This document shows, piece after piece, positions 2,818 through 62,221 of a stretch of 64,000 nucleotides of DNA. Position 1 is the stretch's first letter; each line of letters begins with the position of its first letter. The position numbers were made by a program, and so were the translations under genes. The stretch is from assembly GCA_000934665.2 (NCBI GenBank), contig KZ538220.1, positions 1 through 64,000 of the forward strand. Reading direction: 5' to 3'. The DNA comes from Catajapyx aquilonaris (lineage: Eukaryota). The notes under the pieces were generated by a model that was not told the origin of the DNA, searched no databases, and saw only the letters and a list, made by a program, of their open reading frames with translations.

Positions 2818-3777
2818 AATTGTTTTAATTATGCCTAAGCCAATATATTTTGTATTACATGCGTATGAATATTTTCCCCTTCTGGAGGCCATGCCTCATT
2901 TGACCTTGTTTTGCTAGGTTAGTATTTTGCATGGCGTGAAATAATAATTTTCTACTTCCATGCTCAGGTTACCATAATCAAATTCAATTTCATGTTTATG
3001 CACACAAAATGAGTTTTTATATGGCCCATAGTCTGTACCGTCTGTGTCAAGATAATAACGCAGTCTTGCTGATGCATCATCCATTGAAATGCCTAATTAT
3101 TTAGCTAGAATGTATTTGCATCAGACTATTTTCTATAGTCAGGATTACATGTCAAATCCCGAACGAAGCTTATAAACAGTAGGCCTAACCGAATGTCTAC
3201 AAAGCGCTTTTTAATTTGGCAAATCATGGTGCTATCCAGGCAACGTGTTACAAGTCTGTTTCAGACTCGGTTTACGACTGGAGGGAAATCGTCAGCATAA
3301 CTTTGTCATCCCTGGTGTATTTATCGTTATTGTGCTGGGAGAAAGGTACGAATAGAGGCCAGTTATTGCTTTTGGGACGATGGGGATGAAGACAGGTCCG
3401 AATCTAGTCACGTCCCAGGCATCCATTCCTAGCTTCTTCCACACAACGAAGCCTCCCAGGATCTCAGGACACGCACAAGTCCAATTTCCGCACTCCCATT
3501 TTCTGCAGACATATCAAATTTAACTATTTAGGCCTACGCTCACCCTTCCAGCCATTTCCTGCACAGAATTGAGATATTTCAACATATAAGACGAACAATT
3601 CTCTCTGTGCTCTTCGTTCTCGTGTGCTATTGATAAACCGCCTGGGAATTTCATCTGGAGCTAATAAAGTCCATTTGTTACAAATTTTCAAGGTACGTGC
3701 CGCAGTTTGTTTCACTTATTGTTAGTGGAAGGGAACAAAAAAAATAGAATGTTAGCTTTGTACAAAATCAAATCATA

Positions 3778-38135: not shown

Positions 38136-38180
<45 letters not shown>

Positions 38181-38429: not shown

Positions 38430-38837
38430 CTCCGCTACGTCTCACCACACTGAGAAAAGCAAGATGACTGGGGATTAGGCTAAGTAAGTCTCTCATACGC
38501 ACCACCACGTCTCGAGGCGTCTGCCCTTGAGGTGGGGCATGGTCGAGACGCGCTCACTTCCTAATGGCGAGTGCAGTTGGAACGCCCTGGCTTCCCCGAG
38601 AAGGGGGAACCAAGCCACACCGGCCGGCAAAGCGCAGCAACAAAGAACACTCACCGCTCAGGGTCTGCTTGAGGCACGGAGACGAGCCCCTCGCTTCCCG
38701 GCCGTCGGACGGGAGGGGAGAAGCGCCGATCAGCGTCCGGATGGCGGGTGATCAGGCTCGATTCGCATCACCGGGAGGCCGGAGCAAGAAGGGAGGAGAA
38801 GGAGCGACGACCCACCAACACTACTGCCATGATGCTG

Positions 38838-39482: not shown

Positions 39483-41113
39483 TCAGTAAACGAATGGAAT
39501 GAGTATCTTCCTGTCGCTTGGGAACTCCTTCTTAAGTCGTTCTCGATAGTACCTGAAATACACATAAAATATTGTTAATTGACAATTGCGAGTGGCCTTC
39601 CCTTCTGGTGGTATCTACTGCATCGTACCTGTGGTGATGATTGGCTCTTGTGCTCAAGAAGATGAGGCAGAAAATGCAGAAGTACATAGGGGCTGTCCCC
39701 CAGGCGGCCAGGGCCCATCCAATCCATTCAAGAATCTCGCAAGCATAGTTAGGTGCAACTAGCCAGTTGAAGAGAAAACCATGCGGAACCACATATCTGC
39801 GTCCAGATGTCTTGCGGCGAAGGTCACATATCACATGGTCACAGTATATGTTTCCACTCATTCCAGCCACCATTAGTGTGATGCCTAAAATAATTATTCA
39901 TTTGGAGCAGTGCATCAGCTGTTTGGTATGCTGTACATGATCCATAATAGGGTACACTGTACAGTACTAGGTTACAACCAGAAAAGTAATAATAATTTAG
40001 AAAACTTACCTACAATAAAACGAGGATCATAAAGCCAGTAGTCGGGGTAGCATCTCACCCGAGTCAGGTACACGCCTTGTGTCACACCATTTATGGTACC
40101 AAAGAAGAACATGGGTATTGCCGCAAGCAAAGGCGTTGGACTTGGATTAACCAAAATTTGTGGGTATATGAGGACCCTGAAAAATTAACACCATTGTAAA
40201 ATGTGAGCCGTATGTGGTTGTGTCTTAATCAATCTACTATCTACAAATTCTAGATTATGGGAAGTTTGTTTGTTTATTCGCTAAATTCAGGGGAATGCAC
40301 TTGCATCCCAGGGGCTCTACTATTTACGAGGAATTTAATGCCTCATGTTTCATATGCTAGTAAGGTCTGTGTTTACATGGTCACATGGACACATCCATTT
40401 ACCTCGATTTCCTGCCACCCATCGTATCACGTCTTTCTCTTTTACCATGCTCATACTCTCATTGCCATAAATTCCATGCATGAAGGATACAGCTACTGTA
40501 CAGTAGCTGGATGTGCTCACCAAGGCCACCTCAGATGAGGCAATGATGAGGTTTGAAGGTAAATTTAGCTAATTGTTTTCAATGCCAGTTTTAGGCATAT
40601 CGAGCATATGGATGAAGCATATAGTTTAGTGGTGCTTGTGCACCACAAAACTTCCGGGCATCGCCGGAGTTACTTATTGATGGAGACTAGTATTATCAGC
40701 TCTATCAAGAGCTAATAATGGCTCTATTGGTATGTATATTATCAAGAGGTATTATGAGATTATTTTAGAAGGCAAGACAGTAAGAACCTGTTGATGTAGT
40801 GAGCTGCAAAGAGGGTGATAAGAATCGCATTAGGAAGAGCCGATGCCCTGGTCGATCCTGATGCAAAAGCGAGTGCAACCGGGATGATGAATGAAGGACA
40901 CTCGAACAGCCAGGCCACACGTGCTGGGATTCTGGGTCCCATCCATCCAGCCACATAGCGACCATAAGGTGCAGGCATCAACTGGACCGAACTTGCGGAC
41001 AAAACGAAGAGCCCGAGAGCAACGCAGTCCAACTTCCAGGACAGATCCGCATCGGAATCAGACGCCGCAAACCCTCGAAGCGTAGAAAGGCCCGCCTCAA
41101 CAACGCCAGCCAT
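39483..41113 (-). CDS. SRD5A1: 3-oxo-5-alpha-steroid 4-dehydrogenase (SRD5A1/2-like), 272 aa
   Basis: Exons 41113-40788, 40176-40010, 39884-39629, 39552-39483 (819 nt). Motifs APYGRY, ARVAWLFECPSF, HYINRVLIYP, DPRFIVG, APNYACEILEWIGWALA, RANHHHRYY and RKILIPFVY*. Confidence 0.9.
40233..40690 (+). mobile_element. Non-autonomous Helitron in SRD5A intron 1
   Basis: A|TCTACTATCTAC start, GTTT repeats, 3' hairpin TCCGGGCATCGCCGGA (40653-40668), terminal CTAG|T. Confidence 0.6.
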
Positions 41114-41234: not shown

Positions 41235-43781
41235 ATGTTTCCGTTCTCAGGGCGGTCCGGCCCAGGGGCTGCCCTGCTCCTCCTGCCCCTACTGACCTCC
41301 CTGGTGCTACCAGTGGCAGAGGCCGGGTCGTTCAGCGGGAGGTACGGGGACTCCTTCGACGAGGAGCTGCTCCTGAAGCCACTGCAGAGCGGGCACCTCT
41401 TCGCTCACTTCCACTTCACCACCCGGTGGGACGCAGACGCACACGACGCTGGGGACGCCCGTGAGTTGGGGGGGGGGGGGGGGANNNNNNNNNNNNNNNN
41501 NNNNNNNNNNNNNNNNNTTGGGGGTGGTTGCTGCTGTGGCACTGAAAAGAGTCATGTCAAAGGTCGATGCAGATAGCCTGTGCTATCAATGATGGGAGAG
41601 AGAAAGAAAAAAAAGATAACAAGACAGATAAAATTATGTGTAGCAAAGCTGCAGCAGTTCAAATAATTCAGATGTATGTATGTTTCCCTCATTAAATTGG
41701 AGCTTTTGTTACAGTTGACCACTTTCATCTGTTCCCGCGGACGTTGGGGGAAGTGGCGGAGCATTTCAAGGTTCGTGAACTTCACTTGAGCCTGACTCAA
41801 GGGTTGTGGAGGCATCAGAAGTGGGGGTACCCAGTTGTTGATGCGGCCCCTGGAGCTGAGTTGTGGGTCTGGTTCAAGAAGGGGGCTAAAAAGTATGTAG
41901 GGTTGGGCTCGGCTCATTTTATGAGTTGTCACTAGTGAAAACGTTGTCATGATTTTTGTAGTGTCACGGAAACGTGGAATGACTTGACAAATGCCTTGTC
42001 CGGGCTTTTTTGTGCATCTTTAAACTTCATCGATGCAGCCAATAGTGTGTCACCTGAGCTGTCCTTTCGACCTTCTGGGGTCACTGGATCCCCATCAGAT
42101 GAGGATGCATCTCTAGTCAGATATGCCACCCTTCCTCGAGAAACTGTGTGCACTGAAAATCTAACCCCATGGAAGAAGCTTTTGCCATGTGACACCAGAG
42201 TAAGTGATTGACGTTACCATTAAAGTTGCTAATTATTATCGACGCACTTTTCATTTTACAGAGAGGATTGGCGACATTGCTGAATGCTCGTCACATATAC
42301 ACTGCCAACTACCACTCATTGGGTGTCCATTTAAGGCCAATATGTAGGGTGAGTCACTTGTTAATGGTATTTTAGTTGAATCAGTGGTTTGACATTTCTT
42401 TGTTGCTGGCAGGATCGCAAGTGCTTAGAATCCAGCCTTGAATTGACACAGACAGTGTCACTGGTGTTTGACATCTTGGCTTACAACCAAGGAAATCGTG
42501 ATTGGTCAACTAGGAAGGTGTTTGGATCTGCACTGCCCAGTGCATGCCCTTTGGCCCAATCGAGCAAGATTTTTGTCACCACCATCACAGATGGGGTAAG
42601 TTACAATACATTTAACAACGTTAAACCATCTCGTTAGCACCTTGTCACACCTTTCTCTCATTCCAGACAACCCATCCATTCACCCTGAACCCTCCTCCGA
42701 TGGAGACCATAACCTCTCATCGTGGCGGAACCCGCAATGAGTATGCCTCATACGACGTGGCATCCTTGTTGTCCCAAGGAGGGATGCTGAATGTTGCTGC
42801 TTCCTACTCCCCACCTTCCACCCATGTGCATGGACTACTCCCACTGCCTGTCCTTACTGCCAGCAGCTTCGTCTCAGGATCAGGGCTGTGGGGTGGACGC
42901 CTGGTAGTTGACATTGGAAACAATTACAGGCAGAGAAGCATCAGGGTTGCTGTGCTGCAAGTCCTACCGTGGTTTCTGAGGACATACCTGCATACTCTCA
43001 GTGTCAAAACCAGAGACAGGGATAACCCACCAGGTACGTGCATTGACCTGTTTGATTTTATAAGCATAACCTGGCTTCTCACAGTTCTAGTTCGCTATGG
43101 TCCATCACTGGACCGCTTGCGACCCACCCGGCTGGAGCTGGTCCTGGATCTTCCTCCACAGTCATACACCAGGGTGAGCCTTGACTTTCACCGGGGGTTC
43201 CTGAAGTGGCTTGAGTATCCACCTGATGCAAACCATGGGTTTTATGTCCCACCTGCTGTTGTGTCAGCTGAGTTGCCAGGGGCCAGAAATTTCACTGGGC
43301 TCCCACAAGATGGCAGTACCATTGCTGAATGGTGAGCCTTTGTGGTCTTTGAATTGACTTATAGTGATTTTTCAAAAACAGGCTAACGCTGACAAGGGGC
43401 ACAATTTTTCCACAGTTTCAATGCATCTCGCAGCTCCTACTTTGTCCGCCTTCGCACTGAGCCGTTGTTGGTGTCGTTACCCACCCCTGACTTCAGCATG
43501 CCCTACAATGTCATCTGCCTCACTTGCACTGTCGTTGCTCTTGCGTTTGGTCCCCTGCACAACATCACAACAAAGAGGTGAGTAAGCACTTTTATAAACA
43601 CGAGAATGGGAACTACCTTTTTTCATTTTGCGTTGGCAGCTTGGTCTTGCGAGATGCATCTCGCAAGCGCAATGTGGTAGTTCAAGCCACCACATGGATC
43701 AAGCAAAGGTTTTTGGGAAAGAAGGATGAGAAAGCGGACGTAACAGCAGAAAAAAAGGAGCAGGAGAAAAAGCAACTGTAA
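41235..43781 (+). CDS. PIGT: GPI transamidase component PIG-T, about 609 aa
   Basis: Exons 41235-41460, 41715-41892, 41962-42199, 42262-42348, 42413-42595, 42667-43033, 43085-43331, 43416-43577, 43640-43781 (1830 nt). Signal peptide, [43 protein letters not shown] and [21 protein letters not shown] at 43789. Confidence 0.95.
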
Positions 43782-45160
43782 CCATTCCAATAAAATCAGT
43801 ATTGACACTGGTGATTTTCAAGGCCTTTATTAATGTTTTCATTAATGGTTTCATGGCACATGCTAATTTATCAGGAATCTGTTACCTCTCCGATACCAAT
43901 ACTTGACATGCTGCATCCATTTTTTTTTAAACATGATGCAGCTGGCATGTAAATATCCTATTCGATGCAAACTCTGAGCTTCATTTGCCCGAGTAATGAA
44001 TAAACTGTCATCTTATAAGTCTCTTTTTATTCTTCAAAAGTACACAAGTCCATTGTTATTACTAATCACACTCACTTCCACATTCTCACGCTCTTTCTCT
44101 CATGCTCTCGCCCTCAACATTTCAAAAAATATAACTGCATTCCCCAGATGTTTACCTGTCTTCATTTTAACTTGTTCGTTCCAGAGTATCAATCAACCAA
44201 TCACTAAGGAATGGGTGTCAGGGAATGATTGAGATTAACACACACACACTGAAAAAAAATACTTCACTTGCTTTTTTTTTTGTCCAGTACAAAAATATCA
44301 ATTTTTTTTCCTTGCAAGAGGGGGCATATTGGAAATGGTCTATTTAATACAAGGGAGGATTTAGACTAATTGTTGTGGGATCCCAATCATTTTGTAAGGC
44401 ACGTTTTATCTCTATTTTTAAGGAGTAGTGTTGCAGGGTCAAGTTAGCTGAAGCGTCAAAAATGCAACTTTTAAAGGGGAGAGTTTGAGGCTGGGAAAAG
44501 GGGTTAACAAGTCACACATACTTTTTTTGGCTTGAAAAATATCTGACTGGGGTGGGGAATGTGTGAGATGCAACTTCTATTGCGGTTCTTTTTTAAATCG
44601 ATTGCTGCTTGCAATTATGCACATTTTTTTTTTCTCGTTCAACATGATCCTTGAAACATTAGGGACAATTGACTTATTTGGGGACAGTAAGAGATATGCC
44701 CTCACAGGTGGCAGCACTGGCCTACATAAAAAAATAACAGTATAATAATTATTTACAACAATAATAGCACAACATTGTAGTTAACTTCAACTTCTCTGTA
44801 ACAGTTAATCTCTTCCTACTTTAGTTAAAATGTATGGCAACAATAAAGCCGTGAAAAATATGAGGAGAAATTGCGTGTACTGCCACCTGCCGAGAAGTGC
44901 ATCCCACGTTATGTACAAAAACCAGCACATTTTTTTGCAATTTTTTTCGGCAGTTTTTTGTCAATTTTTTTTTTGTGGTAGTTTCCACCATTTTTCTGCT
45001 GAATTGGTTTGGGGGCGAGGGGGAAAGTTGGAATTGTTACAAACACAGTCCATGGAACCTTCCCATTCACCTCATTAAATTAACTTCCTCAACACGTCCC
45101 CAGCACCAAATGTCAAGGTATAAAAAGTCCCGATGAGTGAAAATCCTGAGTGCTTTTTGC

Positions 45161-48100
45161 TCATAGAGACCCAAGGGCAGACACCAGGGCAGCCCCTAGT
45201 AAGCAGAGCAGAGCTGGGAGGATTGGCTGAAGAGTGGAGCTTCCTCCTCCACCTCCATCTGTGATTGGCCCACCGTCCGTCCTGCTGCCACCCTCACCTT
45301 CCCCTTCACCCCCAGTCTGGCCCCTAGGCCGAGTCCTGCACTCTTCGCTGCACTCGCTACCCTCACAAATGTCGCAGAGGGTTGCCTTCACTGGCTCATA
45401 GAAAGCCCGCGCTCTTCTCGCTGCAAAGAGAACATCATGTTTGCACCATCACTAGTGATCTGGATGCCAATAATACCCTACCCCAAAATTGCCATTACAA
45501 TTATTCTAACTTAATGAGCTTATAAAAATACCAGCATTACAAAAAAAGTGAATTCAGACTACTTACAGTTGTCGTAATAGTCGTACACCACGACTGGAAC
45601 TGGTTTTTGCTTTGCCACTTGGAATGTCCTGTATGCAGACACTGTCGGGCATATCTCACGACGTGTCAGCTGCAATGCCAGAGAAACTCAGTAGTCAAGT
45701 ACACCATTCCAACAAACAGCAGTGGCTAATCAACACCTACCTGGTCAAAGTAGAGCACAACCTGGGTGTCTCCTTCCTGTGTGTCTACTCTCTTTATGTC
45801 TGGATGACTGTTTCTAAGAGATGGCAGTGAGTCTTGGTCCACTGTGTATCCAGAGGGTAAATCAACCTCCATAACCGCCATGTTGCTCTGGTTCCCTCCG
45901 TCTCCTCCGATAAAGTGGGTACAAACTGTGACCTTCATCTGGTTCTGATCAGCGCTTTTGTCCAGTTGCGGGTCAAGTGAAAAGAGTGGCCAAGCACCTA
46001 CCACTGCAAGATTATAGATTGATTCAACCTGCACCACTGCAAATCCACTCCCTTGTGCCTCAACCTCAACTGTTTTGGTGTCTGCTGGCAGCTCAAACTT
46101 CTGCAACACCATTGCATTGTCACGAGTCACTTCAACCTCCCGAGATGATCCGCCATATCCAAGCCTGACTTTCATTGAGCTGGTCCCAGATCCCATTCGT
46201 TCTGCCAGTTTTGCCAAAGCATATATACCAACTACAGTGTCCTGTGTTGAAGAAAATCCACCTTGTGCATTGCGTTGAGCCACAAGCCAGCGCATTATGG
46301 GGAGGGCGTCAGATATGAGGTCACGCTCCACGTAGGTGAGAAGGGCATAACTAGTCATCTCAACATCAACTGACTTGGTAAGTGAATGCCATGGGTTGCT
46401 CTCTTTTTCCTCTGCTGATATACGCTTGGACCACCATTTCATCTCCCCATCAGCTGTCACATTTGCCTTATCTTCCAACAAGTTGAAGGCACCTAAGCTT
46501 GCTGGATGCTGTGCCAACTGAAGTGCGTATGCCACTAGAGCGATTGCATATGGATCCTCAAGGCCATCCAGCTGGCGTACCAAATAGTCAGTTGCCCTGT
46601 TACGCGCCGCAGTAAGTGCAGGTGTGGCTATTTCACGTGATTGCAGGAATGCAATTAAGGTGTAGGCTGTGAGTGCCAGGCCCTTAGCAGCTCCACCTTG
46701 CATGTCAGTGTGTGAAACCTTCCCAACCTCTGGGAATGACCCATTGGCAGCTTGTTGTCGTGATAGCCACTCAAGTGCTCCTTCAAGGACTGCAGGATCA
46801 ATTGACAAGTGTGGACGAGCCTGGTAAAAGCTGCGAGCAACAAATGCAGTGAGCCAGGTTGAGCCATTGGGATCACTCTGTCCAAATGCACTGAATGATC
46901 CATCATTCCTTCGGTAGGTGAGCTCACGTTGATATCCAGTCTCCATGAAGCGGAGAGACTTTGCTCTGATAGCAGGAGTCAACTGACGTGTCTTCTGGAG
47001 GTACTCTGTCACCACAATGTTGGGGACAAAATTGAGCATGTTCTGTTCTCCACACCCAAATGGCATGCGAAGAAGAGAATCCAGGTTGTTCACTGCTGGT
47101 CCTAAAAGATCTCCTGCCACGGCCACTTCAACTCGGGATGAGCCTGGGACAGCATTTGGAGGTATCTCTACTGGTACAGAGCTTGAGAATGATCTTGAGT
47201 TGCGGAGATCAACCAATACAGCCTTGTTGACATGCTGGGGCTGGCCTTCAGACTGCAAGAGAGTCACAAACATGTTAAAATCAGGTTGCTAATCATACCG
47301 CATTTGTTTCTCCATCAAGAATGACATCAAGTTGGCTTTCATGTTAAAATTTATGCAAAGATCTACAAGTTAACATCAGCCAATAACATGCCACATGGTT
47401 AATGTAAAGGCAATAAATTTCTACATATTAGTGATCATGACTTTACCTTGACACGAAGCTGCCTGAGAACGGCGTCACCAGCCAGTGAGCTAGTGGCTGT
47501 CACTTTGATATCAATGTGCCCAATAACCTTGGGAGTGATCATGAATGAAACAGATGCTCCATCACCTGCCTTAACCAGGACTGACTTCATGCTAGACTCA
47601 CTCCTCCCTGCAAAAATTTCATACAGACATTACTGGTACATTCAAATCAGACAGGCCTAATAGAAAAGCAGGACATACTGGACTGCCTGTCCACCTCGTT
47701 GCTCATCTCTGTGAACTCAAATTCTTCATTTGCATTCTCCAATGTCACCTGAGCTGTCACATCCTTCTTCATGTAGTTGAACACTACAGCCTGAATAGCA
47801 ACTACCTCTCCCCGGATCACTGAGTATGGCAAGTTCAGTGAGACAAAGAAGGGTCGGAAAACTTGCATCTGTTGGTTCAAAGCAGTGTAAGTACACGAGG
47901 AACGATTAAAACAGTGTCTTTAAAATTATGCAAAAGGACAAACCTTCGTCGGGCTCTCCATGACTCCAAGTCCATGTTGGTTATCAAGTGCAAAAGCAGA
48001 AATGACCCAAGAAGTGATGGTATCTGGAGCCTTCTTTGTGATAGTAGCATGTCCATCATAACTGGATATATTTTAATGGTGTTTATGGGAGGGCAGGAAG

Positions 48101-51100
48101 GAAAAGAATTACCATTAGTTTCAAATTCATTCATGAGGTAAAAGTAACAACATAAATATGTTAGGAGAGGAATGAAAGGTCACAAAAGTCCCCAGCTAAC
48201 AATTTGTGGCAGAATTAGCTGGTAAATATTAAAACGTTAAAATCCCATCAGTCACAGCCTGGGAGTTAGGATGATAATAGGTGAGCAGCTGAAAATAATG
48301 TGAGTGGCAATGAGTTAGTTTAGCACTTTTTAATGTTGCTGTAAAAAAAAAATCCGCGTGATATTATATGTAGATTATTGCAGTCCTGGAATCCAACCCA
48401 CAAGATTATTGCATATAAAAAAATAATGTGTTAAAAATGTGGCAAAATGTGGGAAATTTTGGGGCATGATTCCCCAGGGCCTCATTTATTTGACTGCAAG
48501 TGAAAGTCTTGTTTGACAGCCAAATCCACCACCAAAAGCATATTTCATAGCTAAATTATGCCATTCCAGACTTGGTGAATAAAAAAGTACAGGCCTCATC
48601 AAGACCCAAAAATTCACTGAGATATATCAATTTTAAAAATTTAACAATCAAACTTTTGTACCATAGTCTGGAATGTCCAGAAGCAGTAGTGTGTTATGGT
48701 CTACCCTACCCCACATCAATGTCTTCAAAGATCCAAGTTTCAGGAAAGTGTGTCCGCACTTCAATGTCAGTAGACAAATCGGGTATGCCGCCTGCATTTG
48801 GCGGTATTGGCACTCCTTCTGCTTCTGGCATTGGTGCATTCATAAATACTCTATCTTCTAGAGCGCCATCATATTCATATGCTGCAAACAAAATGGCAAC
48901 CATTCTAGTTCTGTGAGCAAGCCGTAATCTCTCTGCCTAATTGAGGACACCCTTTCATTTAGGGAATGACATACCAGTCCAACCCACACCAGAGAACCCA
49001 ACACCCAAGCAAGCAGCAGTGCAAAGGGACAGGGTCATGGGATGGTCTTCTTGGTAGGAAATAGTATGTAACTACCGAATGGTGACATTTTCAAAGAGCC
49101 AGGTGGGGGGCAGGTCTCTCAGTAGAAACACTCTGCGATTGTTGTATGTTGGAACAGGTAGTCGTGAAAATGCATATGGCCCTGCTAGTGGTGGCCTAGT
49201 CGATGGTCTAGGCCCTGGCCGAGGGGTCAGATCTGGCCTTATAAGTGGAACTACGGGCGCTGGAATTGGAGCTTCGCCTGGCTTCTTCTGCCTCAATGGG
49301 TTGTCCTCCCAAGGGTTCCTCTTCAGTGGGGGGAACACGCCTGCACACACACACATACATGTGGAGGAAAAGGAGGGGATGGAAGAGAGTGGGAATTAGT
49401 GGTGAGTGACCAAAGAAAGAAATCACATGCTATATACATGCCTCAAGCCTGCACATTCACATAGTCATTGTCGCACCCTCAATCACTCGTATGTACAGAC
49501 CGGTACAGATCACCTAAAAATATTGACCATACGTGTGCAACAATGCTAAGTTTCAAATGTGTAAGCCAATCCATTATATTACTGTACATTCAATATTCAC
49601 AAACTTCTGGAAATCAAACAGAAAAAGCCTGAAAGAGAACTTGTTCATTAGGCTATGATTTTGAGGCCCTGAGGAGTAAGGAAAATTCCTATGGATATTA
49701 TTCGGTGCACCTAATGTGGTTTGGGATGGGATGGCAACAGTCATATTCACACTCATCTACTCTACCCTATTTCATCCACCATCTCCCAGATCCAGGTTTC
49801 AGGAAAATCTTTGCGAACGCCTCCTCCTTGCAGATGCCTCGACACCTCACGCTGCTCCGAGGCTTCTTCCACAGCATCAGCAAAATCATTCAGACGTGCT
49901 CTCAAGCCCACTGGTTTGGAAGGGATGGAGGTATATGGCACAACACAAGAGGGACATTACTACCATTCTAATCGTACAATTGCAGCTTTTCGTCAATATT
50001 CCTATTCTTCAAATTTTGTCAGGCGTATCGTTTACATACTAAAGCAAATAATTGGCAGTGTGATGATTAAATATGCGAGTAAACACATTTTAATACAGGT
50101 GAAACTAAATTAGTTTCATGCTTATCTGGCTCAAACCCCATTACTAAGATAATTTTAGCAACTAATCCACAATCTACGCAATTCATAGGTGTATGTAAGG
50201 AGAAAAATCCGTCAAATTGCTCACCATAAATTAATAAATCTTATGCCTACTTGAAATTGTGACTCGTTTGTGTAAGTGACACTAGTGTTAATGGCAATTT
50301 CAATGAAATTTTCATAGTTGAATATTCCCAATTTGGATGCTCAAGACAGTCTCTACTACATACATAACATTTACACAAAACTGGCCCACACCAAACAATC
50401 ACACATAACCCTCATTCATAACGAACATTCTCACAGCACCAAACCCATTAAACCAGCAACTGTTAAGAAAGTCATTAGTGACATTCAGAAGATGAGTGCA
50501 TCACCTAAGAGAAAGAGCATTCTTATACAAAATATTAAATATGAAAGTTCAACGATCAAGGCATAAGCTGTATTCAATCTGCAGAACTCTTTGAAAACAA
50601 TGAAATTTCATTTCTGCAATTGGAAATTGTTTCTGACATACACACTCATCAGACTATCAAGTGTGGTAATTTTATATTATGGTTTCATCCTAATCATACT
50701 TGTGAAGGAGTAGATCCACAACATATTGTGCATGCTATAAAATCAAAATTCTGTGAACATAATTTTGCATTAAGTATTACACACATGAAGATACTTATTG
50801 TGAACCACCAAGTATTTCCAGATTGAATACAACTGACATTAATGGTACTTCACCATTTTCTCCCAATAAAAGTAACTTGCAGAAAACTGGATCCCCTTTA
50901 CACAGTATGACTGCAAGTGCAAGAATTATTTTACAATCATATGCTTATAACCAACTCACTGCCACAAAATTGAAACATCTTGTTGTCTGGGGGAAGTCAA
51001 GATCAGTCTCAAGAGAGAAGGAGAAACGGAAGATGAAATGGAAATCAACAGTTGTATGATAAGAGTGTTGCTCATGTTTTGTTCGCGAGGGAGAAGAGTC

Positions 51101-54100
51101 GTACCCAACATCAACCGTGTCCCAGAGCCAGGTCTCAGGAAAGTGCAGACGGAGTTTGGGAGAAGCGAAGGGAGAATCGACCTGATCTCCTTGCATCCCT
51201 CCAAAAGCACTGGCACCGGCACCTCCAGCAAAGGCAACAGCCTCCATCGGAGAGTTGGACCGGTAGTACACTTTAAAATATTTAGGGCACTCCTTTCACT
51301 AAAATGCTCTTCTTTAACTTCATCATGCTTGTAAAAACCTTCTGACCTCAAGAGTCATTTTCATATTCCAATCTCTCCTAAATTTATTCTCAGGTCCAAC
51401 CGAAGATATATCCTATTTAACTTCATCATCATTAAACATGCTGTTGTGCTATTACCAAGATGAGGCGAGGTCAACCTTTGGCTCACACCAGAAACTGCTC
51501 AACACTTGAGCGGAGGCAAGGGGGTTGGGAATCAGGATTCTATTTGTCACCAGGGATGTTAAGAGCTAACAAAAATTTTTTTTAAATGCACACAATCTAT
51601 GTACAGTGTACACCACTAGGATGCAGTGACCTGGAGGGACAAAACTACTCAAACAACTGGAGCTCAATCAAAATTACATGTGACACTTCCACACTGTGAC
51701 AGCTGAGGCTACAGAGCTGGAGAAATTGCATTAAGAGAGTGATAAAAAAAACAAAGCTCACAAAAAATGACAACCATCAAAATGAAGGCAGTTGCCTTTC
51801 CCCTTCACCACAACTGACATGAGAAGGAAACCCAAGTTAGTGCGATAATTCTGCCACAAACTATGAATATCACATGAATACAGGATGTCTAGGATATGTG
51901 GGGTACAAATTATAGGACGTTTCTTTCATTAACCTCTAAGTATCAACCACATTTATACTTTCAGTGACACAAGAACGGCTAATAATTCAACATGCATAAG
52001 CGATATCCTACAAACCATGCCAGAAGAATTAATTATCCCTTCTACTATGCAGAGAAACATTCAACTTTAGTCACGACATACAGAAACATTGCACAGAAAA
52101 TATGATGAACAGCCAAAACTTCAAGAGAGAGTACCAGCAATGAATCATGAAAGCAATTGCCAAAACTGGCTAGAGATGTAAATGTATGTGATGTAAGCTT
52201 ATCAATGTGCAGCAATTGATAACATAAATGTAGGCTCAAAAGGAGCAGCTTCAAAGGTCAAAATGAGAAGCAAGCTGAATGATGAGCAGGTATCACATGC
52301 ACTCCACATGATTGTACAGAGTTCTGCTGCATAAATAAGTTCTTGCAGATGCATATTACATCCAATCAAATCTATTTCCCACTGTAAATGTATCATGCTT
52401 GTCATGCAGAAGTGAATACAAGGTGTCCATAATTCGCATGTCACATCCACACAAGGTTTGTCACTGCAGTGCACAGAGTAAATGGGTCCCCCTGTCCACA
52501 CCCAGTGATGTGCGACCTACCCCGCAGTCAACCCAGTCCACAGCCAAGTCTCTGGGAAAAGCCTCCTGAGATGCACGGGGTTTTCTTCCCCTTGCATTCC
52601 CCCTGACTGTGATGTGGCCCTCTCCTCCAGGGGGTCCCTTTCCTTCCCGCCTCTTAAGGCCGTCTTCATCCTGGCCCCCTCTGGCGACTTCGGCCAGAAC
52701 ACCCTCCGAGGCATGGGGGCGTCCAACACACGACCATGACGCAAGTAAACTGTGGTGCACACCCCCCAAAAAAATGCCACGGAAGAATCCCAACAACCCC
52801 CAACAATCGATCAGAGTGGTTCGGTAGTACACATGAATACACTGGTGACATAAAACAAGTACAGGACAGGGGAAAGACCAAGGAGCAGAATGAACACAAG
52901 ACTCCTGCCTCCAGTCAATAGCCCAAAAAACATGTCATTTCACAGAATGTTCAAGATTTGTTTGCTTAAAGTAACCTATGTGCTCAATCCAATCGTAAGC
53001 TTATGATAGTTCTCCTGCCTTACTTCTGAGTAACACATAATTAGTTGTGACAAAAAAAGGTTTGTACTCACCAAATGGGTAATGCTCATAAACAAAGGCA
53101 TTGGTGAGGACTACTACTCCAGCATTCTGAAAATAAAAAGTAAATATGTGAGCTTATGCAGTCTGTTTAAAATGCTTTGCTCCTAAAAGCACTGCTCATC
53201 TTAAGCTGTACATCTCAATTCAATGAGATGGGTTCCAATTAGTTCTGATTGCCAGGTACCTGAAATACTTCTCCGGCAGTGGAAGACCCTGACCAATACA
53301 CAAGGGAGCGCCTCTTCCTCTTCTCGATTCCTCTCATCCAGGGCAGATAGTCTGGTCTTCGGCCCCCATCGTAAGATTCCAATTCTTCCAACACATCGGC
53401 CTGGGTGATGTCATTCCCACTCTTCAGGAGCAGGACACTCTGGTCTATTCCAAGAACCCCAACGTAAGAGCCTGGCTTGGAACTTATATCCACCTGCACC
53501 TCCTGGCCTGGCTCTGCTTGTCCTGGCTTCACATTTACATCCACCTAACAATTAAGATCAGTATTAGCTACGTCAGCCTATTCATTGAAAATTGGTGGCT
53601 ATTCCGCAAATTTGCAGTGAAACTCACGAAATTCTGGAATGCTCCCTGGACATCAAAATCAAGTGCATCTGCTACAACCTCTCCATCTTTGCGGACATGG
53701 AAAACAACCACTCGAGCCCTAGGGGCCATTGAACCAAGTGCCAGGAAGGAAAAGGAGCTCGTCATTCTCCCTCCAACATCAACAGTCCTTGCAAGTTGGA
53801 CATCTCCTCGCCCAACCACATGGAATGTGTATTTGTTCAGGGGAACAGTTGAGTTAACTTGTATTTCCACCTCTCGGTTCACCTGCATTGACACATGGCA
53901 TGATCAACAGGTCCTAGTGTACCCATGCATAAAGCTTAGGCTATGTTGCACCAGCCCAAGAATCAGGTACAAGTCATCCAGGTTTGCCTTTTGTCACTAA
54001 TTGTTAGGTTCATTAATAACAAGGGCAAATCCATATCTGAACTTGAATCTTGGACTAGTACAACAGGCTCTTAGTGAGAAAGATACTTACAGTTGGAACA

Positions 54101-57100
54101 GCAGTTTTAAGTACTGCCTGTATGTATGTGTTCGAAGGTGAGTGTGCCCTTTCAATATGAGAGAGCCACTGGTTGAGCTCCAAGTAGGTTGCCTCGACTC
54201 CAAACCCATGCACATTCTCATCCAAAGGTGGGTAGAACTCAAGCTCTATCAGTCCATTCTTGGGGATGCGGTACTGGGTGCTGTTGTACTCCTCCAGAGT
54301 GTAGGAAAAGCCATGCTTCACAACAACCATGTTCTTCTCATCCTGAACTGGCTTGTCATCTTGGTAGGCTACTTTCAACTGTGAAATTGCAAGGATACGT
54401 AAAATTTTTAACTCTGTGACTATACCATGAACATATGATGTGCAAGCCTTATTTGAGAAGATACTGTAATTCAGCCTTCCAACTGAAAATTTCAAGCACT
54501 TAACAAAATGGTGCAGTTCTTTGCATTTTACAAGAGCTGTTTATGTAACAAAAGCCCATTTGTAAAATAATCTTGCCCACTCCCTGCTCCAGAGACTCCG
54601 CTAGTAGACTTGCACTGCATTGCAGAGAATAAAATACTCACGAAAGCAGTGTACTTGAGCCCAGGCTTAAAGTTGTCTGTGGTCTTGATGAACTCAAACT
54701 TGTAAGGGTACTTGTGAACTATGAGAGTTGCGGACACATTTTGCCTGCGCCCAGTAAGAGCCTCCTTCACAAAGACATCAAAGGTGACGGGCCTGTGGAA
54801 GTCAGTGGCTAGACGGAGATCCTTCACCAGGTCAATCTCCACAGTTGCCTTTCCGTCCAAGGGGAGGACCTTTCGGAAGGGCTCAGAGAAAACCGGCTGA
54901 ATGTAAAGTGAGTGGTAATTGGGATACACAGCTAGAGTTGCCTCTCCTTTCACTGGCTTCCCGTAAGTGTATCTACAAAAAAAATGTCAAGGGTGAATGT
55001 GTCATCTCATAAACACATGGTTCTTGTCTCTCTAAAAAATCCTGCAATAAATACTTCACCCACTTTGCACGGATGGTGGCCACAATCTTAGGATCCTGAA
55101 AAGTGGCATATGGCGGCAGATCAATGGTGACCTCAAACTTGGGCAGCACATATTCAGCCACTTCAAAGCTCTTCGTAAAGGTCTGGCCCAAAACGTTGAC
55201 AGTCAATGTCCAATCCCCGAGGACAGGCTCGTTGGACAAATGTAGCTCCGATGCGAACACACCCTTGTGGGTGAACACACGGTTCCATTGCTTCACCCTA
55301 TTGCCCTTCCCGTCCTGTCAGGAAGAGAAAGTTGTCCTATCAACCAAAACTACAAAGTTGGGTACCAAACGTGCTTAATCATTTCTGAATGGAACAGTGA
55401 GCAGCACAACAAAAGGCCCTATGATCTTTAATAACTGATGTAAAATAAAGACAACAGATTATGCAACAACAGGAAATTGATACAGGTCCCACTCTTGATA
55501 TAATAAGGGCACGCATGCACATAAAACCCGCTAGGGTGTTGCAATACTGAATTGTCTGGTGCAAGTACGGTAAAATAATTATAGTGATTCACTAGGTCAA
55601 GTTTGTTGACCTACTGCCCTAATAAGGATTCCACTCTATTGTTCCCTCCAAAAAATCCCCAGCAACATCACTCACAGTCACAAACACATCCATGGCGCCG
55701 GTGACACTCGGCCTCAGGTAGGGATTGACCATGATGACTCGAAACTGCACCGTCTGACCTGGCTTGTAAATGGCCTTGTCCGTCTGCACAAAAACCGAGT
55801 AGCTCTTGTGTACATACTCCAGCTCAGTCGAGTTTTCGAAGATCATCCCACGTATGCCCTTGACAGTCAGGTTGTAGGAACCAGGCCCAACGTTGCCCAT
55901 CTGGATAACACAAGAGGTCGAGAAGGTCAGGTTCATGCCCTTGCTACAAGACTGGTAGTTTTTCTTTCTTCTTTTTTTTTTTACCTGCAGCTTAATAATT
56001 GAGGTCGTCTCTGGCAAGACCGTGACCTCCTGGCTGTTTCGAAGGGAACCCCCTCCCGCCTGTACTCCTTCTACGGCCACCATCATGGTCACTGAATCCT
56101 GCACTCCATGTGTGCTGACCCCCACATGGTAGTCCAGGTCAGGGCGTACCACTTTGGGTGCCACCACTGTATAAATCCTGCAAATAAACGCATCTTCAGA
56201 ATCTACCCTCAGGTAACCCTCCCCAGAATGTGTGCTCATATTAGGGCATCCACAGTGGGTGTTTTTCAGAAGTGGTTGACCCGAGTGTCAGCAAACTCCA
56301 TCAGCTATAAGGGGAAGCCCACGTCTATAGCAACCTGGTCCAACAACTTTGCATATCAGAAGCGACGACCCGAATCCAGTAGATTAGCCCAAGCGTGAAG
56401 GAACCGAATAAAAGAAAGTCCCACAAAGAGACGGCCACTTTTGATTACCAAACCGCCTTTTGCAACGTCTGTCATCCCCCCACGCACCAGCATCTAGTTT
56501 TTCCTTTCTTCGGCTGTTCGGCAAAGTGTGTGGACCTCCGGAGCGTTGACCCCTTCAATATATACCAGGTGGTGGCAGTCACCTTCACATACCCTCCAAT
56601 TTTGGGCCGGTAACTCAACAAGTAGTATCCGCAACAATATTTGCTCCCAGACAGCCACCCCAAAAATAATAATAAAAAAAACCGTCATAAATTATAAAGC
56701 ACCTATCGATCCACTACCGCCACAACCGTAAACGCAGTTATGCAACTCTCCAAAAACAACGCGGGAAATGACCTACTCGGGGAAGCACCTCCAAGAAACC
56801 AACGGAAATACCCGAATTGTTGTATACTCTGGGTATTCCCCCCCTCTTCTAGTAGAATGCTGGTTGAACCGGAGGCGTGATGAGCGGCCCATTTCACAAG
56901 TAGGCCATCCCCCTCTCTGTATATATACATGCAGGTTTGTGCTCTCATCCACAATGAATATTCCGCCCAAACTCATGACGTACGTACCGGATGAATCAAC
57001 TGGTCAATACAAAATTGAGCAAAAATATTTAGCCGAAAACTGGGGAGTGCCGCATTGCACCTGCACAGCATTGAGCGGGGTTGGTAAAAAAAAAAAAAAA

Positions 57101-57657
57101 AAAGATCCGATTACATACACGTTCATTGAAGCGCGGCCAATGCGCCGTAAATGATGTCACCTTTTTTGACAGGCCCGGTTAACGCCGACAGTTAATTAGC
57201 TCCGATGCAATGTGCGTAGGTGTCGACATACATATAAGGAAGGTGAAGGCCGTTGCGTCATCAGCCGGATTCAGCCCCACCCGCGTTGTTTTTTTTTATC
57301 AAAAAAATCATACAAGTTAGGCTCCCGGTTTAAAAAAAAAAAAAAAAGCGTATAGTGATAGTCTGCTGGCAGGATGCCCTCGCTCTAGCTCTTATCCCCG
57401 CTGCAGATCGATAGTTTTGGGCGGTGGCCCCCCCGTGCTGGTGCAAAGTGCCGACGCCGACGCCCCCGACGACTCCGACGCCAACCAAACGCACCCCCAC
57501 CTCCTCTACTACCCTGCTTGTACGCCTGCTACGTCAAACATCACGCATCCTACGCACGCTGACCTGTGCGTGTCACATATTATGATTCTTACCCTTCGCT
57601 GTTGACGCATGACGCAAGCGCCAAGGTGCATATGGCGATCCTCCAAAAGGTGTCCAT
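45161..57657 (-). CDS. CD109: CD109-like / insect-TEP-type thioester-containing protein with GPI-anchor signal (about 1478-1518 aa depending on bait exon)
   Basis: Constant exons 57657-57593 (signal peptide MDTFWRIAICTLALASCVNSEG), 56177-55985, 55900-55676, 55314-55064, 54972-54642, 54378-54091, 53882-53628, 53544-53260, 53126-53072, [one alternative exon], 48061-47944, 47868-47679, 47607-47447, 47252-45741, 45669-45567, 45420-45161. Motifs QTDKAIYKPG, EYVLPKFEV, RKRR, PDTITSW, thioester GCGEQ, His in GKVSHTDM, VYDYYD, Cys cluster and hydrophobic C-terminus. Confidence 0.95.
48710..48881 (-). CDS. TEP alternative bait exon A5 (172 nt)
   Basis: tgcag|CA...GG|gtaggg. Encodes AYEYDGALEDRVFMNAPMP...EVRTHFPETWIFEDIDVG. 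Confidence 0.85.
49076..49340 (-). CDS. TEP alternative bait exon A4 (265 nt, Pro/Arg-rich)
   Basis: tgcag|GC...CG|gtagtt. Encodes GVFPPLKRNPW...TRPPLAGPYAFSRLP...LLRDLPPTWLFENVTIR. Confidence 0.85.
49766..49910 (-). CDS. TEP alternative bait exon A3 (145 nt, absent from the ORF track)
   Basis: accag|TG...GG|gtagag. Encodes VGLRARLNDFADAVEEASEQREVSRHLQGGGVRKDFPETWIWEMVDEIG. Confidence 0.85.
51105..51270 (-). CDS. TEP alternative bait exon A2 (166 nt)
   Basis: taaag|TG...GG|gtacga. Encodes VYYRSNSPMEAVAFAGG...KLRLHFPETWLWDTVDVG. Confidence 0.85.
52521..52749 (-). CDS. TEP alternative bait exon A1 (229 nt)
   Basis: cacag|TT...GG|gtaggt. Encodes VYLRHGRVLDAPMPRR...VHLRRLFPETWLWTGLTAG. Confidence 0.8.
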
Positions 57658-60600
57658 AGTCGTCTGGAAAAGAATGGGGAATTCACATTATTAAGTTGCA
57701 CACAGGCTCACATGCAAAAGTGGGCAGCCATGGTCACTCCAAGGAAAAGGCCTCAAGACCCACGCACACCTTTGTTACTGATATATGACCTTAAATTACA
57801 GGAAAAATATCTGTCTCCCAGTCATACAACCAGCCCTAAGGCCCTGGTGTAAAATCATCCTAGGAATTCACCAAGAACAGTGGCCTTTCATACAACCGGC
57901 CCTAAATTGCGCAGCTTTCCCTCTCCACGTCCAGAAATGGCAACGTAAGCGGCCACCACCAGTCCCGTCGCCCCCTGAATCATTAATCAACAACACTGCA
58001 GCCTAGACATCATTAAGCCGATTTTCGCACACTAAAACGAGCGCAGATGTATGTCAAGTGCGCCCAAACACAAGAGCCCCACGTGGTGACCGATTCATTG
58101 TTGGTTATGTGCACCATACCTGCGACAGCTCCGAAGTGACCTATGTGGGTTGCGAGTTATAAAACTTATATGGTTTTGAAGCAATCCCGGATGGCCCGCT
58201 CAAGTGTGAAGTACCCCCGCGTGATTGCAAAAGAGCAGGTGCAATGAGTGAGGGAAAAGCCCATACCTCGTCCTTGGGGCACTTCCGAGGCACCACCATA
58301 TACACGCGGACACCCCAACAAACTCCGATCCTCTTACACAACTTTCCAGTGCTGCATGACATCATCCGGGAATCGTGTGTGATTCGTACGTGTGTGTGAC
58401 ATTTCGGACCAATTCTAACCATTATCAGGGTGTTAGAAGGAGACGGAATTGCGTCAGATTAATGTACAGTGCTTGTACAGTACAAATAAAATGTCGGTGC
58501 TGTCATCCAATTGCATGACCCTGCTGCGTATCCGCAAAATTGTGGTGGAGGAAGCTATAGAAAAGTTGTGGTTACGAAAAAAGGTTCAAGGTCTAGCACC
58601 GAGTCAATACCGATTCTTGTCTTTGATTTAGAACAACCTGACATCCATATATTTGAGGGGGGGTTGGTCCTATTTTTAAACCAGCCCAGTCAATGTTCCC
58701 GGTTTCGCCTATTATTCTACCAAAATCGAATTCCACTGCAGGGGTATGTCCATCCCACGGGTCGAATTGAAGGTCAAAACATGGTCACCTACACAGCCCA
58801 AACGGAAATAGACGCGTAGCCACAACAACATGAATAGTAATGAAGATGCTTGAATGCAAAGTCCCAGAATTGGCCCAATTGGCCTTGGCCCTGACTCGAA
58901 ATTGACCTTTCAACCTTCCAAAGTCATCTTCTGCTGCCGTCAGCAACATAAGGACGCAACGGAGGTCATCGACACCACTTGGTACGTTTCTTCTTTTCAA
59001 AAGTTCGATACGCCAAGTTTTCTTTTTCGTCGCCCTTTCCCCGGAAGAAGTCCCGTTCCATCATCCTGAATCTCTCTAGAATATATTTGTTACATATACA
59101 ACCCTGTGCCAAATGTAACATCATTTCTGAGAATTTTCTGCGAGAGAAAAAAAAAGAGTCATGTGCTTAATTACTACGAAGGCCTCCGACGGGGAATTTT
59201 TTAAACAAATTTCTTTTCCGTTGGTCAGCATTGGTTTCGGTCCAACGCACCGCTTTTCATGTCAGCAGACATTGTTACACGCGCATGTCAAGAGTGCTTC
59301 CTGCTCACATGTAAAATGATACTGGGAATTTTTCAGCTGACCAAAGAGTCGTCATCCTTCCTCCAGATTCTCCAGAAGACCAGAACACCTCACTATTTGG
59401 TTCAACAATGACTCCCTTATTGCCGGTACCGGTGGCTGGTAATCGCAGTGGGTTTTAGGCTATCATCCGTCGTGATGTCACGGTCATACATCGCTCGAGG
59501 GGTTGTGATAAATCACCGGAATTACTTCTCAGAAACAAGTGCTTGAAAAGTTGTGCAATATGTGGGTTTGGTTCATAAGGTTTCCGGTCACTTCCAGTCA
59601 CGGAAACTGTACACTAATACTGCATCGTAATTGAAGAAAATGAGTCTGACATGCTACCTTTCGTAAGAAGGAAATGTTAGGAAAACACTTTTTTTTTCTA
59701 TTTTTCACAAACAGCCTATAATTTGTGCCTGAATGAAAAACTCATTTCCAATTAATCGTGATTGCGTCACCTACTTTTTTCCCCAGCCTAATGACCCCGC
59801 TTCTAATCCATGCACGTGCAAATATTTGCCCTGTATCATTACCTCAATAACAAACTATCCCAACCAGAGTGATTTATCATTGTATGACAACAAGTTACAC
59901 ATTGCTTATTTCGCTAGCGGTTGATGTGTTTTATCGCCGGAAACGGTCATGTCCATCACTTGTCCTATAATCACTGTGGAATTACTGTACATCCCTTGTT
60001 AAATTAAGCCGCACTTTCCAAAGTCGAGTCACTCAGGCTAAAAAGAGCGCCATGAATCATCAACATTTCCCGCGTATTTTATTAACAGGCTTACGAACTA
60101 TCTCCCCAAAGCCATAACTCAGTCCTACAAATATTTATGCTGTACTTGACTGCAAGATGTACAGCAGTGATTCACTTCCTCGTTCGTCTGGTGCTGACAT
60201 AACCACCATGCTAGACTCACGAAGTTCTAGTATCAATCAAAAATTCGCAGAAACTGGCACGCCATATACGCGAAATTTTTTCCAATTATCCTCCAATCTA
60301 CGTCAGAGAGAAAATGAGACCGCATACTCCTAATTAAAAAAGGGCTGCCATAATAACCGAATGGTTTTAAAATAAGCCGTGTTCCACGTGCAGCAAAAGT
60401 AGGACAAACGGTTTTCTCCCGGACTCCTTCATTTCCCTCCGACTCAAAACTGTCTCTACAAATTCCAAGAAAAGGCGCCTTTCAAACTAAATTGAGCCTT
60501 GAATAATGTAGCCCTCAAGGTTAACTATGCCAGGAGCTCGAAATCAGGTGACAACAATCCCGGAGAAATGTTGGGGGGTACGGAATGCTCTCTTTTTTTT

Positions 60601-62221
60601 TTCCTTCCATTGAGGGACATCGCCTTGACCTGGTGCAAGCAGCATTGGGCCAACCTAACGGGCCAGGGCTGGCTCATTTGCTTACTTTCGTGGGCCAGAC
60701 ATCAGGACGCAACCGGGAAATCCCTTCTGGGACTTGCTTTCACACTGATGTCTAGCAACTTGCTATATGGCCAGTTGCATCAACAAAAATTAATTTTAAA
60801 AATATACATATATCCATAGGAAGAAATATACAACGGAAAAATAGTCNNNNNNNNNNNNNCCCCCCCCCCCCCCCAGAGGAACCTGTTTCGGCACAGTTGG
60901 ACAGGAACATGTGACGTGCACAACGGTGAAACAACCACTATTTCCTCTCAGATTCGTCCGTGTTAAATCACCGTCTCGGGACATTTGTCAGCAGCAAAGA
61001 GATACTGTGAAATTTGTTTTATCCTATTGCTTAAGCTCCACCTTCTTCCCAGCAAGTTTGCTCGAGACGTTCACTCTGCAGGTTCATTGTTCCAGCACTG
61101 TAAGTCCGGAAAGCATCACCCTTCCAAAAATTGGGCATTTGGCTCCCTGCCATTCCCTCCCATCGTAACAGCGTACTCAGGTCCTAAAACGTGGAGTATT
61201 AACCTCCGTACCCAGAATCGCAAGTGAATTCGCACTTCCAAGAACAGTCTGACCATATATGGACAGAACTATAGTGTCCGCCCACGCATCATTTCCACCC
61301 ACATACGCACATACCTGTATGTCCCTGCACTCCGATTGTTGACAATAATGCTGGGAGGCATGACCCAGAAATAAGTGTGTCTCGGCCCCTGACACAACTC
61401 CGTTACCGCCGATATTTTTTTCGCACATATCCGCACGCGAAAAAATTATGGGCCTGTCATACAATGGCGTACTGGCAGACGGTGCAATTGCAGGACGTAC
61501 TGGTGCCAACAATTCGGGTTGACATTTTCTAAATTAGTGTTTTTTTTTTAAATAGAAAAGGTGCCTGGTCCTCTCTTTTTTTTTAACTCCCCAAAAAGTG
61601 GAAAAGTCGGAAATATCGAACCGGCCACCCCCCCCTCTCCCCATCAGCAGCCTCGTCCCCAATAAGGGAACGGGGGTGGGAGGGTGGAAGGACCGGGCGG
61701 GGGCTGGGGTGGGGCAAAAAGGTGGGGCCAAAACCCGGGCACAAACCCGGGGGGGAAAAACACATCCGGATTTTTTCTTCTTCTTTAAATCCCCCCCCAA
61801 AAATGTGACACGCACCGACGACGACGCACCCCTCGTACCCTGAAGTGGGCAGTCCCGCAAACAAATAAAACTAATGATCCAGTCCGTGCGTACCTGCTGG
61901 ATGAGTATGGCCCAGGAGCGTCTCCTGGTGCGTTGTCCGCACTGTATCACTGGTGATGTCGATGTATGACCAGCACACAGAGTACCTGTCAACCTGCCCG
62001 GGCGAAGTAGCCTCGCAGACTGGCGGAGAGTCTCCTGCACCGCCTGCACCGGGCGGCTCCTGCGGGCGACGACAGGTGGCGGGCGGGCTCTCTGGCCTGG
62101 TTCCAATGGGATCAGGCAGATGGCGGCACCGGACGGGGAGAGATTAAATCCAACATGGCGGCCCGCATGTGATGATTGAACTTGCTGCAATTGAAGGGCT
62201 TGCGCTGGTTCTTTGGGCGAA

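Follow-up and report, generated by a model that had tools for sequence, protein, structure and literature searches.

A 64,000-nucleotide (nt) stretch of DNA from Catajapyx aquilonaris (GenBank assembly GCA_000934665.2, contig KZ538220.1, positions 1 to 64,000 of the forward strand; hereafter the window) carries on its minus strand a gene for a thioester-containing protein (TEP), and raises the question of how five short exons, placed between two constant exons in the segment that encodes the protease-sensitive bait, are used when the transcript is spliced. The original prediction for this DNA was that they are mutually exclusive and diversify a glycosylphosphatidylinositol (GPI)-anchored immune protein. 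We consider it highly probable that the five exons are a bait-segment cassette cluster from which one is taken per mRNA, in an arthropod TEP2/CD109-like protein, and that the resulting isoforms are not equivalent.

Six-frame translation of positions 47000-54000 gave five matches to the pattern [FL]P[EDP]T[WF], every one on the minus strand. The exons that carry them (A1 to A5) and their constant neighbors are, in the order of transcription:

53072..53126, minus strand, 55-nt constant exon upstream of the cassettes: NAGVVVLTNAFVYEHYPF plus one base; acceptor TCAG, donor GTGAGT; ends in phase 1
52521..52749, minus strand, cassette A1: 229 nt; basic; GC content 0.61; ends RRLFPETWLW; lineage-specific variable part
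51105..51270, minus strand, cassette A2: 166 nt; starts VYYRS; arthropod-common 'YYR' type
49766..49910, minus strand, cassette A3: 145 nt; charged; ends KDFPETWIW
49076..49340, minus strand, cassette A4: 265 nt; Pro/Arg-rich; TRPPLAGPYAFSRLP...RVFLLRDLPPTWLF inside; deeply conserved type
48710..48881, minus strand, cassette A5: 172 nt; acidic; ends THFPETWIF
47944..48061, minus strand, 118-nt constant exon after the cassettes: opening part of the Pfam A2M domain, with ...APDTITSW...; acceptor CCAG, donor GTTTGT

Each cassette has an AG acceptor, a GT donor and a length of 3n+1, so that translation and the splice-site check bear out the coordinates, lengths, flanks and FPETW-type ends given in the original prediction. 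Looser scans with [TSAI][WF][LIMV][WFY] and W[LIMV][WFY] revealed no sixth open-frame cassette between 53071 and 48062. The exon at 48061-47944 takes two bases from the exon before it and supplies the last base of the codon; since every cassette is 3n+1 long and leads from phase 1 to phase 2, only single inclusion leaves the thioester domain in frame. The five single-cassette transcripts are open over 1506 (A1), 1485 (A2), 1478 (A3), 1518 (A4) and 1487 (A5) amino acids (aa), whereas all 27 combinations of 0, 2, 3, 4 or 5 cassettes stop at residues 699-770. The frame rule that had been proposed for the locus thus holds for every combination, including the four-cassette sets that the proposal had omitted, in which the count is restored but the frame is still not open. 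As far as this layout indicates, each of the five exons would be used productively in C. aquilonaris.

The five segments differ strongly in composition, and the chemical labels first given to them are reproduced by calculation: net charge is +4 for A1, -5 for A3, +7 for A4 (24% Pro) and -11 for A5, and A2 has 24% Gly+Ala. GC content is 0.45-0.61 in the cassettes versus 0.35-0.47 in six introns. The value of 0.61 for A1 goes with a GC content at third codon positions of 0.71, compared with 0.50 and 0.45 for the exon that encodes the thioester domain (TED). All-against-all comparison and the direct repeats D1 and D4 confine homology among A1-A5 to the C-terminal 11-29 residues around FPETW, the end of A4 (LPPTWLF) being the most divergent. 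The cassette donors (GTAGGT, GTACGA, GTAGAG, GTAGTT and GTAGGG) deviate from GTRAGT at position +4 in four of five cases, and several constant donors keep to it there. Such a departure at +4 is usual among alternative exons.

To which family does the protein belong? A Pfam run on 150 minus-strand stop-to-stop open reading frames (ORFs) placed MG2, MG3, A2M_BRD, A2M, TED (TED_complement), CUB2 and A2M_recep in this order along the gene, from 56287 to 45729. The thioester is intact (RMPFGCGEQNM, in the exon at 47252-45741, with GCGEQ at residue 927 of the A2 isoform). A protein search with the 520-aa TED ORF returned 2891 proteins at an E value of 0.001 among 8000 scored candidates; the best 120 of these 2891 were examined, and they are arthropod proteins with source names such as 'CD109 antigen-like', 'TEP1-F' and 'thioester-containing protein 1 allele R1-like', with a top identity of 60% and GCGEQ in 120 of 120. 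With the exon at 53544-53260 as query, no well-covered match exceeded 59% identity, and a few partial ones reached 60-67% over at most half of the query. Among solved structures human CD109 ranked first (8s3o, E 1e-102, and 9fx2), ahead of Anopheles TEP1 (E 2e-84) and then A2ML1, A2M and C3. The window's GKVSHTDMQGG aligns with GRVIHSELQGG of CD109, with a His at the same place. Opsonin-type TEPs, with C3/TEP1/CD109-like reactivity, have their catalytic His ∼110 residues past the thioester, and we take the window's His to be this one. The Cys-rich signature of insect TEPs is present, ATLCDICEGSECSEEC aligning with ATLCDICEGEDCS of the homologs. In a quick maximum-likelihood tree of 30 rows with an arbitrary root, the protein groups with two Daphnia proteins outside the insects (SH-aLRT support 100, 58% identity). 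This placement makes the source most likely a non-insect pancrustacean, and neither protein search brought up a close relative or a near-identical sequence. By domain order, thioester and tree, the gene, of single-copy type, is a member of the CD109/insect-TEP branch and falls among the orthologs that go under the names 'TEP2' or 'CD109 antigen-like' in insects and Daphnia, and the thioester-family assignment first made for it stands on the Pfam order, the intact GCGEQ and CD109 as the top solved relative.

The protein ends in ...GGGGGSSTLQPILPALLCLLGAALVSALGSL, that is, in small residues and a short spacer (GGGGGSSTLQP) and then the terminal hydrophobic stretch ILPALLCLLGAALVSALGSL, with nothing after it. 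The Kyte-Doolittle value over the best 15 tail residues is 2.44; in the homologs it is at least 1.6 in 96 of 120 and 1.24-1.55 in 20 more, the other four being fused or truncated models without a tail. The GPI claim of the original prediction fits this GPI-signal-like C terminus, with its small residues, spacer and conserved hydrophobic tail, and attachment to the cell surface through the predicted anchor is plausible.

The same site varies in other arthropods. Nine RefSeq isoforms of Aedes aegypti share the flanks ...AGAVIMTNANEQP and FSGEKTITKKVPDTITSW and have nine different segments between them, each ending in R..FPE(T/S/A)W(I/L)W. Armigeres (10 isoforms) and Uranotaenia (17) show the same pattern among the matches listed. 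An older Aedes model, AAEL008607-PA, has yet another cassette (...TRPPLAGPFAFSRIP...TWLFEN); AAEL008607 is named AaTEP2 in PMC3983052. The comparison with orthologs that had been suggested as a check thus places the five window exons exactly where orthologue isoforms vary. A2 aligns over its full length with 'YYR' cassettes among the 120 homologs, with 41-46% identity to hymenopteran ones over ∼61 aa.

Five loci turned up when metagenome contigs were scanned with the TED ORF, and two of them are informative. L003 is a Daphnia-like contig of 5042 nt, one of whose cassette ends is identical to that of the D. magna protein P0010. It has the same 55-nt upstream exon at 89-143 (NSGTVVLTNGYVQESMPF plus one base, donor GTGAGT), a downstream exon that begins near position 3571 and, between them, five cassettes that each allow a 3n+1 exon with AG and GT flanks, several with alternative in-phase acceptors:

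553-703 of L003, cassette X1: 3n+1 exon with AG/GT flanks
1193-1355 of L003, cassette X2: YYR type
1554-1722 of L003, cassette X3: 3n+1 exon with AG/GT flanks
2099-2348 of L003, cassette X4: RPPLAGPYAFSRIP...LLRDPPPTWIF; RPPLAGP type
2892-3045 of L003, cassette X5: acidic; FPEVWLF (W-x-F type)

The recognizable types stand in the same order in L003 and the window (YYR second, RPPLAGP fourth and acidic fifth), and comparison of the two sequences shows the cassette architecture to be conserved between them. A4 and X4 are alike in their variable part (score 110, z 11.5), and A3 and X3 reach a z of 4.5 on a low score. Positional orthology of A1 with X1, A2 with X2 and A5 with X5 was considered and is unsupported by the variable parts (z 0.1, 1.3 and -0.5, respectively). 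L001 (4928 nt) is one uninterrupted ORF of 1471 aa that aligns with a window isoform in a single segment at 55.7% identity and carries exactly one cassette; it is an mRNA-like or intronless copy.

Like A2, A4 has deep orthologs. Its sequence (…TRPPLAGPYAFSRLPVPTYNNRRVFLLRDLPPTWLF) matches 23 of the 120 homologs, at best with 60% identity over 55 residues (E 2e-19), and a strict regular expression finds the type in 20 of the 120 (ants, wasps, bees, aphid, stink bug, cricket and mosquitoes). A barnacle, two cockroaches and a termite came to light in a second protein search, as did a stick insect with one substitution (RPPLEGP). Against solved chains A4 gave no match at E values up to 10. Judged from these alignments, the retention of the A4 cassette (RPPLAGPYAFSR...TWLF) from barnacle and Daphnia to insects is the mark of purifying selection and not of bait diversification. 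It casts doubt on the usual view that alternative bait exons all evolve fast as sensors of pathogens, and the occurrence of the type in groups as far apart as barnacles, water fleas, ants and mosquitoes suggests a function particular to that isoform.

We speculated further that the array of five slots has been kept in number, order and phases between the window and Daphnia-like lineages, slot 4 being ancient, pan-pancrustacean and under strong constraint and giving its isoform a conserved partner or cleaving protease, probably an endogenous one, and the remaining slots evolving freely as baits that face pathogens. This proposal is tentative, and we would put it at somewhat short of an even chance; if true, a single immune gene would have a mixed 'fixed plus hypervariable' design. 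Neither the conservation of the A4 type nor such a design is mentioned in the literature found by full-text search, which left several key papers outside and is not proof that they are unpublished.

On the preferred account, pre-mRNA splicing would join the exon at 53126-53072 to one of the five tandem exons and this to the exon at 48061-47944, and transcripts with zero or several cassettes would meet an early stop and be expected to undergo nonsense-mediated decay. Each cassette would contribute a bait stretch that varies and is probably exposed, and after it the conserved R..FPETW(L/I)(W/F) strand, which would lead back into the macroglobulin fold. If the protein behaves like human CD109 and other monomeric alpha-macroglobulins, cleavage of the bait would change its conformation, and the GCGEQ thioester, with the His at the catalytic position, may then link the protein covalently to the attacking protease or a nearby surface. 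Within the set, A4 would be an ancient, constrained cassette, probably for a conserved partner or endogenous protease, A2 a widespread default type, and A1, A3 and A5 fast-evolving cassettes that plausibly widen the range of proteases sensed. The protease specificity of the isoforms is something we infer.

A perfect 15-nt inverted repeat joins 48203-48217, in the intron before the downstream constant exon, to 51846-51860, in the A1-A2 intron, and a second TTTGTGGCAG, a partial copy of the repeat, lies at about 50959-50979, just past A2. As a docking and selector pair of the competing-RNA-pairing kind known from Dscam exon 6 it was rejected: duplex energies in a 46-nt docking window fell within the range of 30 shuffled docks, and the motif is absent from L003. 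Positions 44500-58500 gave no Rfam matches, and 18 plus-strand ORFs of at least 60 aa gave one sub-threshold Pfam match only.

Several observations weigh against this account. An ungapped 14-mer scan found no docking site in either flanking intron, the observed value being reached in 200 of 200 and 72 of 200 shuffles, although gapped or longer pairings could escape such a scan. The acceptor of A2 has a poor pyrimidine tract (AAATATTTTAAAG). In the structure alignment, the furin-site insertion of CD109 (RRRR) between TED/CUB and MG8 corresponds to a gap in the window protein, so that the release part of the CD109 mechanism may not apply. None of the 120 homologs resembles A1 or A3 beyond the FPETW end, and the sole further similarity of A5 is a weak one, over 48 residues, to a cockroach cassette; without a recognizable orthologue beyond that end, purifying selection on these three is not demonstrated. 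The conservation of the A4 type fits poorly with a purely pathogen-driven hypervariable bait. The original prediction had read the five isoforms as a repertoire for sensing different pathogen proteases; with A4 conserved at ∼60% over 55 residues this does not hold for the whole set, but a diversification of A1, A3 and A5 is plausible.

Could the three exons without clear relatives simply be debris? If only A2 and A4 were functional alternatives, A1, A3 and A5 would be remnants of tandem duplication that splicing seldom or never includes, and it is true that clear orthologs in other arthropods exist for A2 and A4 only and that most non-mosquito species are listed with few isoform numbers (X1-X4). 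We regard this as unlikely, because A1, A3 and A5 retain an open frame, a 3n+1 length, AG and GT flanks and the end motif, the loss of which would be expected in unused exons, and because their GC content is exon-like. The Daphnia-like contig also retains five intact cassettes, and protein models of D. magna and D. pulex use two different cassettes that are neither of A2 nor of A4 type. Far less probable still, and in our judgment close to negligible, is that the exons are combined rather than exclusive. It would account for the four of 148 homologs with a downstream anchor in whose models two or three cassettes follow one another (P0025, P0125, P0142 and P0170), but these models are labelled 'uncharacterized protein', 'hypothetical protein' or 'unnamed protein product', every multi-cassette combination in the window stops within ∼120 codons, and the RefSeq isoforms and the mRNA-like L001 hold one cassette each.

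The more serious competitor concerns function rather than splicing. The isoforms might not be mainly directed at pathogens and might instead adapt a housekeeping protein, either a surface protease inhibitor or one for adhesion, to tissue or stage (epithelia, cuticle, moulting), with the variable exons drifting under weak constraint. An endogenous partner is suggested by the A4 type, which scarcely varies among Hymenoptera, Hemiptera and cockroaches and persists in crustaceans; in humans, CD109 works on the host's own proteases and on signaling (PMC12927315), and the choice of Tep2 exons in Drosophila shifts in neural tissue (PMC11765297). However, the other cassettes diverge beyond recognition between the window and L003, mosquitoes have 9-17 cassettes, a pattern usual at host-pathogen interfaces, and pathogen-dependent induction of isoforms is described for scallop CfTEP and shrimp A2M-2 (cited in PMC7016707). 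We therefore hold a mainly housekeeping role to be less likely than not, though it has more in its favor than the two alternatives above, and retain the one-of-five bait cluster with non-equivalent isoforms as the preferred reading.

The serial-cassette models also bear on annotation. A simple motif count over-counts such cases, 17 of the 21 'multiple' ones being, by eye, PW[LIV]Y at an exon junction. The remaining four are database entries for a cricket, a stick insect, an oribatid mite and a bivalve. They are probably mis-joined alternative exons. The expectation that automated annotation would miss most such exons is accordingly borne out in part: four models string cassettes together, but RefSeq lists 9-17 isoforms in three mosquitoes. 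As ab initio models sometimes join cassettes in this way, gene models of the TEP2/CD109-like family need checking.

The complete gene comprises 20 coding exons on the minus strand, from 57657 to the stop at 45161, with splice sites chosen under the guidance of cockroach, termite and Daphnia homologs. The hydrophobic N terminus encoded by exon 1 aligns with the leader of the homologs ahead of YT[IV]VAPK. Apart from the cassettes and the exons on either side of them, the coding exons are:

57593..57657, minus strand, first coding exon: ATG at 57657; signal-peptide-like MDTFWRIAICTLALASCVNSEG; donor GTAAGA
55985..56177, minus strand, constant exon 2 (MG1): homologue-guided model
55676..55900, minus strand, constant exon 3 (MG1/MG2): Pfam and splice model
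55064..55314, minus strand, constant exon 4 (MG2/MG3): Pfam and splice model
54642..54972, minus strand, constant exon 5 (MG3): Pfam and splice model
54091..54378, minus strand, constant exon 6: homologue-guided splice model
53628..53882, minus strand, constant exon 7 (A2M_BRD, first part): Pfam and splice model
53260..53544, minus strand, constant exon 8 (A2M_BRD, second part): Pfam and splice model
47679..47868, minus strand, constant exon: homologue-guided model; donor alternatively at 47675 with acceptor at 47603
47447..47607, minus strand, constant exon: homologue-guided model
45741..47252, minus strand, single exon of 1512 nt: GCGEQ, the whole TED with the His of GKVSHTDMQGG, CUB2 and the start of the receptor-binding/MG8 domain
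45567..45669, minus strand, constant exon (MG8): homologue-guided model
45161..45420, minus strand, last coding exon: Cys-rich iTEP signature CDICEGSECSEEC, Gly/Ser-rich stretch, hydrophobic tail ILPALLCLLGAALVSALGSL and stop

One junction is ambiguous, the solutions 47679/47607 and 47675/47603 scoring 335 and 333. The 84-nt intron at 55901-55984 on the minus strand is stop-free and in frame within the ORF at 55622-56287, so that a naive ORF reading adds ∼28 spurious MG1 residues. The TED lies in one 1512-nt exon in the window (45741-47252) versus at least three pieces in L003 (4225-4986), so intron gain or loss must have occurred since the two lineages separated. Downstream on the same strand follow genes at 39535-40184 (minus), with the Pfam domain Steroid_dh (3-oxo-5-alpha-steroid 4-dehydrogenase), and at 36644-38441 (minus), with the first beta-propeller of RSE1/DDB1/CPSF1; this tight spacing suggests a compact genome. 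Upstream of the gene, two minus-strand ORFs of 264 and 259 aa (61537-62328 and 63132-63908) have no Pfam match at an E value of 0.01. Runs of N that mark assembly gaps lie at 27295-27308, 41485-41517 and 60847-60859, and none is within the thioester-protein gene.

Both the gene family and the alternative-bait-exon mechanism are already known, from fruit flies, mosquitoes, water fleas, snails and a scallop, and the window locus adds to them a well-resolved example, with exact junctions, of innate-immune-receptor diversification by exon choice. The precedent that the original prediction drew from Drosophila Tep2 is confirmed: five TEP2 isoforms arise from the bait exon (PMC7016707), Dm-TEP2 is described with five splice variants (PMC2685406), and Tep2, there called a CD109 orthologue, has been measured as a mutually exclusive event (PMC11765297). 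By these published descriptions, D. melanogaster Tep2 (CG7052) resembles the window gene in belonging to the insect-TEP/CD109 branch, in using bait alternatives one per mRNA, and also in having five of them. Mosquito TEP2 belongs to the same family and shares the cassette site, the R..FPE(T/S/A)W end, the hydrophobic C-terminal tail and an A4-type cassette (P0116 and P0109), but its cluster is expanded, with at least 9, 10 and 17 distinct cassettes among the isoforms listed versus five in the window.

Further afield, according to PMC7016707, mutually exclusive exons number six in scallop CfTEP and 12 in snail BgTEP2, shrimp A2M-2 occurs in six variants, and BgCD109 has alternative bait exons; for BgCD109, as for many invertebrate iTEP/CD109-like proteins, a GPI anchor is predicted. 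The mollusc TEPs (Chlamys farreri CfTEP, Biomphalaria BgTEP2 and BgCD109) are like the window gene in their tandem, mutually exclusive hypervariable exons with a conserved C-terminal part per exon, and BgCD109 in particular combines cassette exons with a predicted GPI anchor; they differ in having 35-43 exons, as compared with 20 coding exons in the window, and in belonging to another phylum. Human CD109, a GPI-anchored monomeric protease inhibitor that is triggered by bait cleavage and leaves its anchored MG8 domain via the furin-site insertion (PMC12927315), is the top solved structure and shares the GCGEQ-type thioester and the His at the catalytic position. It differs in that the excerpts of PMC12927315 describe a single bait sequence and do not mention a cassette array, and in the insertion before MG8, which is absent from the window protein. 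Closest of all, also by its place in the tree, is Daphnia TEP2 (Dappu-TEP2; D. magna 'CD109 antigen isoform X3'), for which McTaggart et al. (2009; PMC2685406) report the thioester, the catalytic His and 'additional putative coding exons' at the homologous spot. The Daphnia-like contig has the 55-nt upstream exon and five 3n+1 cassettes with the same order of types in common with the window, and differs from it in an intron-split TED and in variable parts that are unalignable except between A4 and X4.

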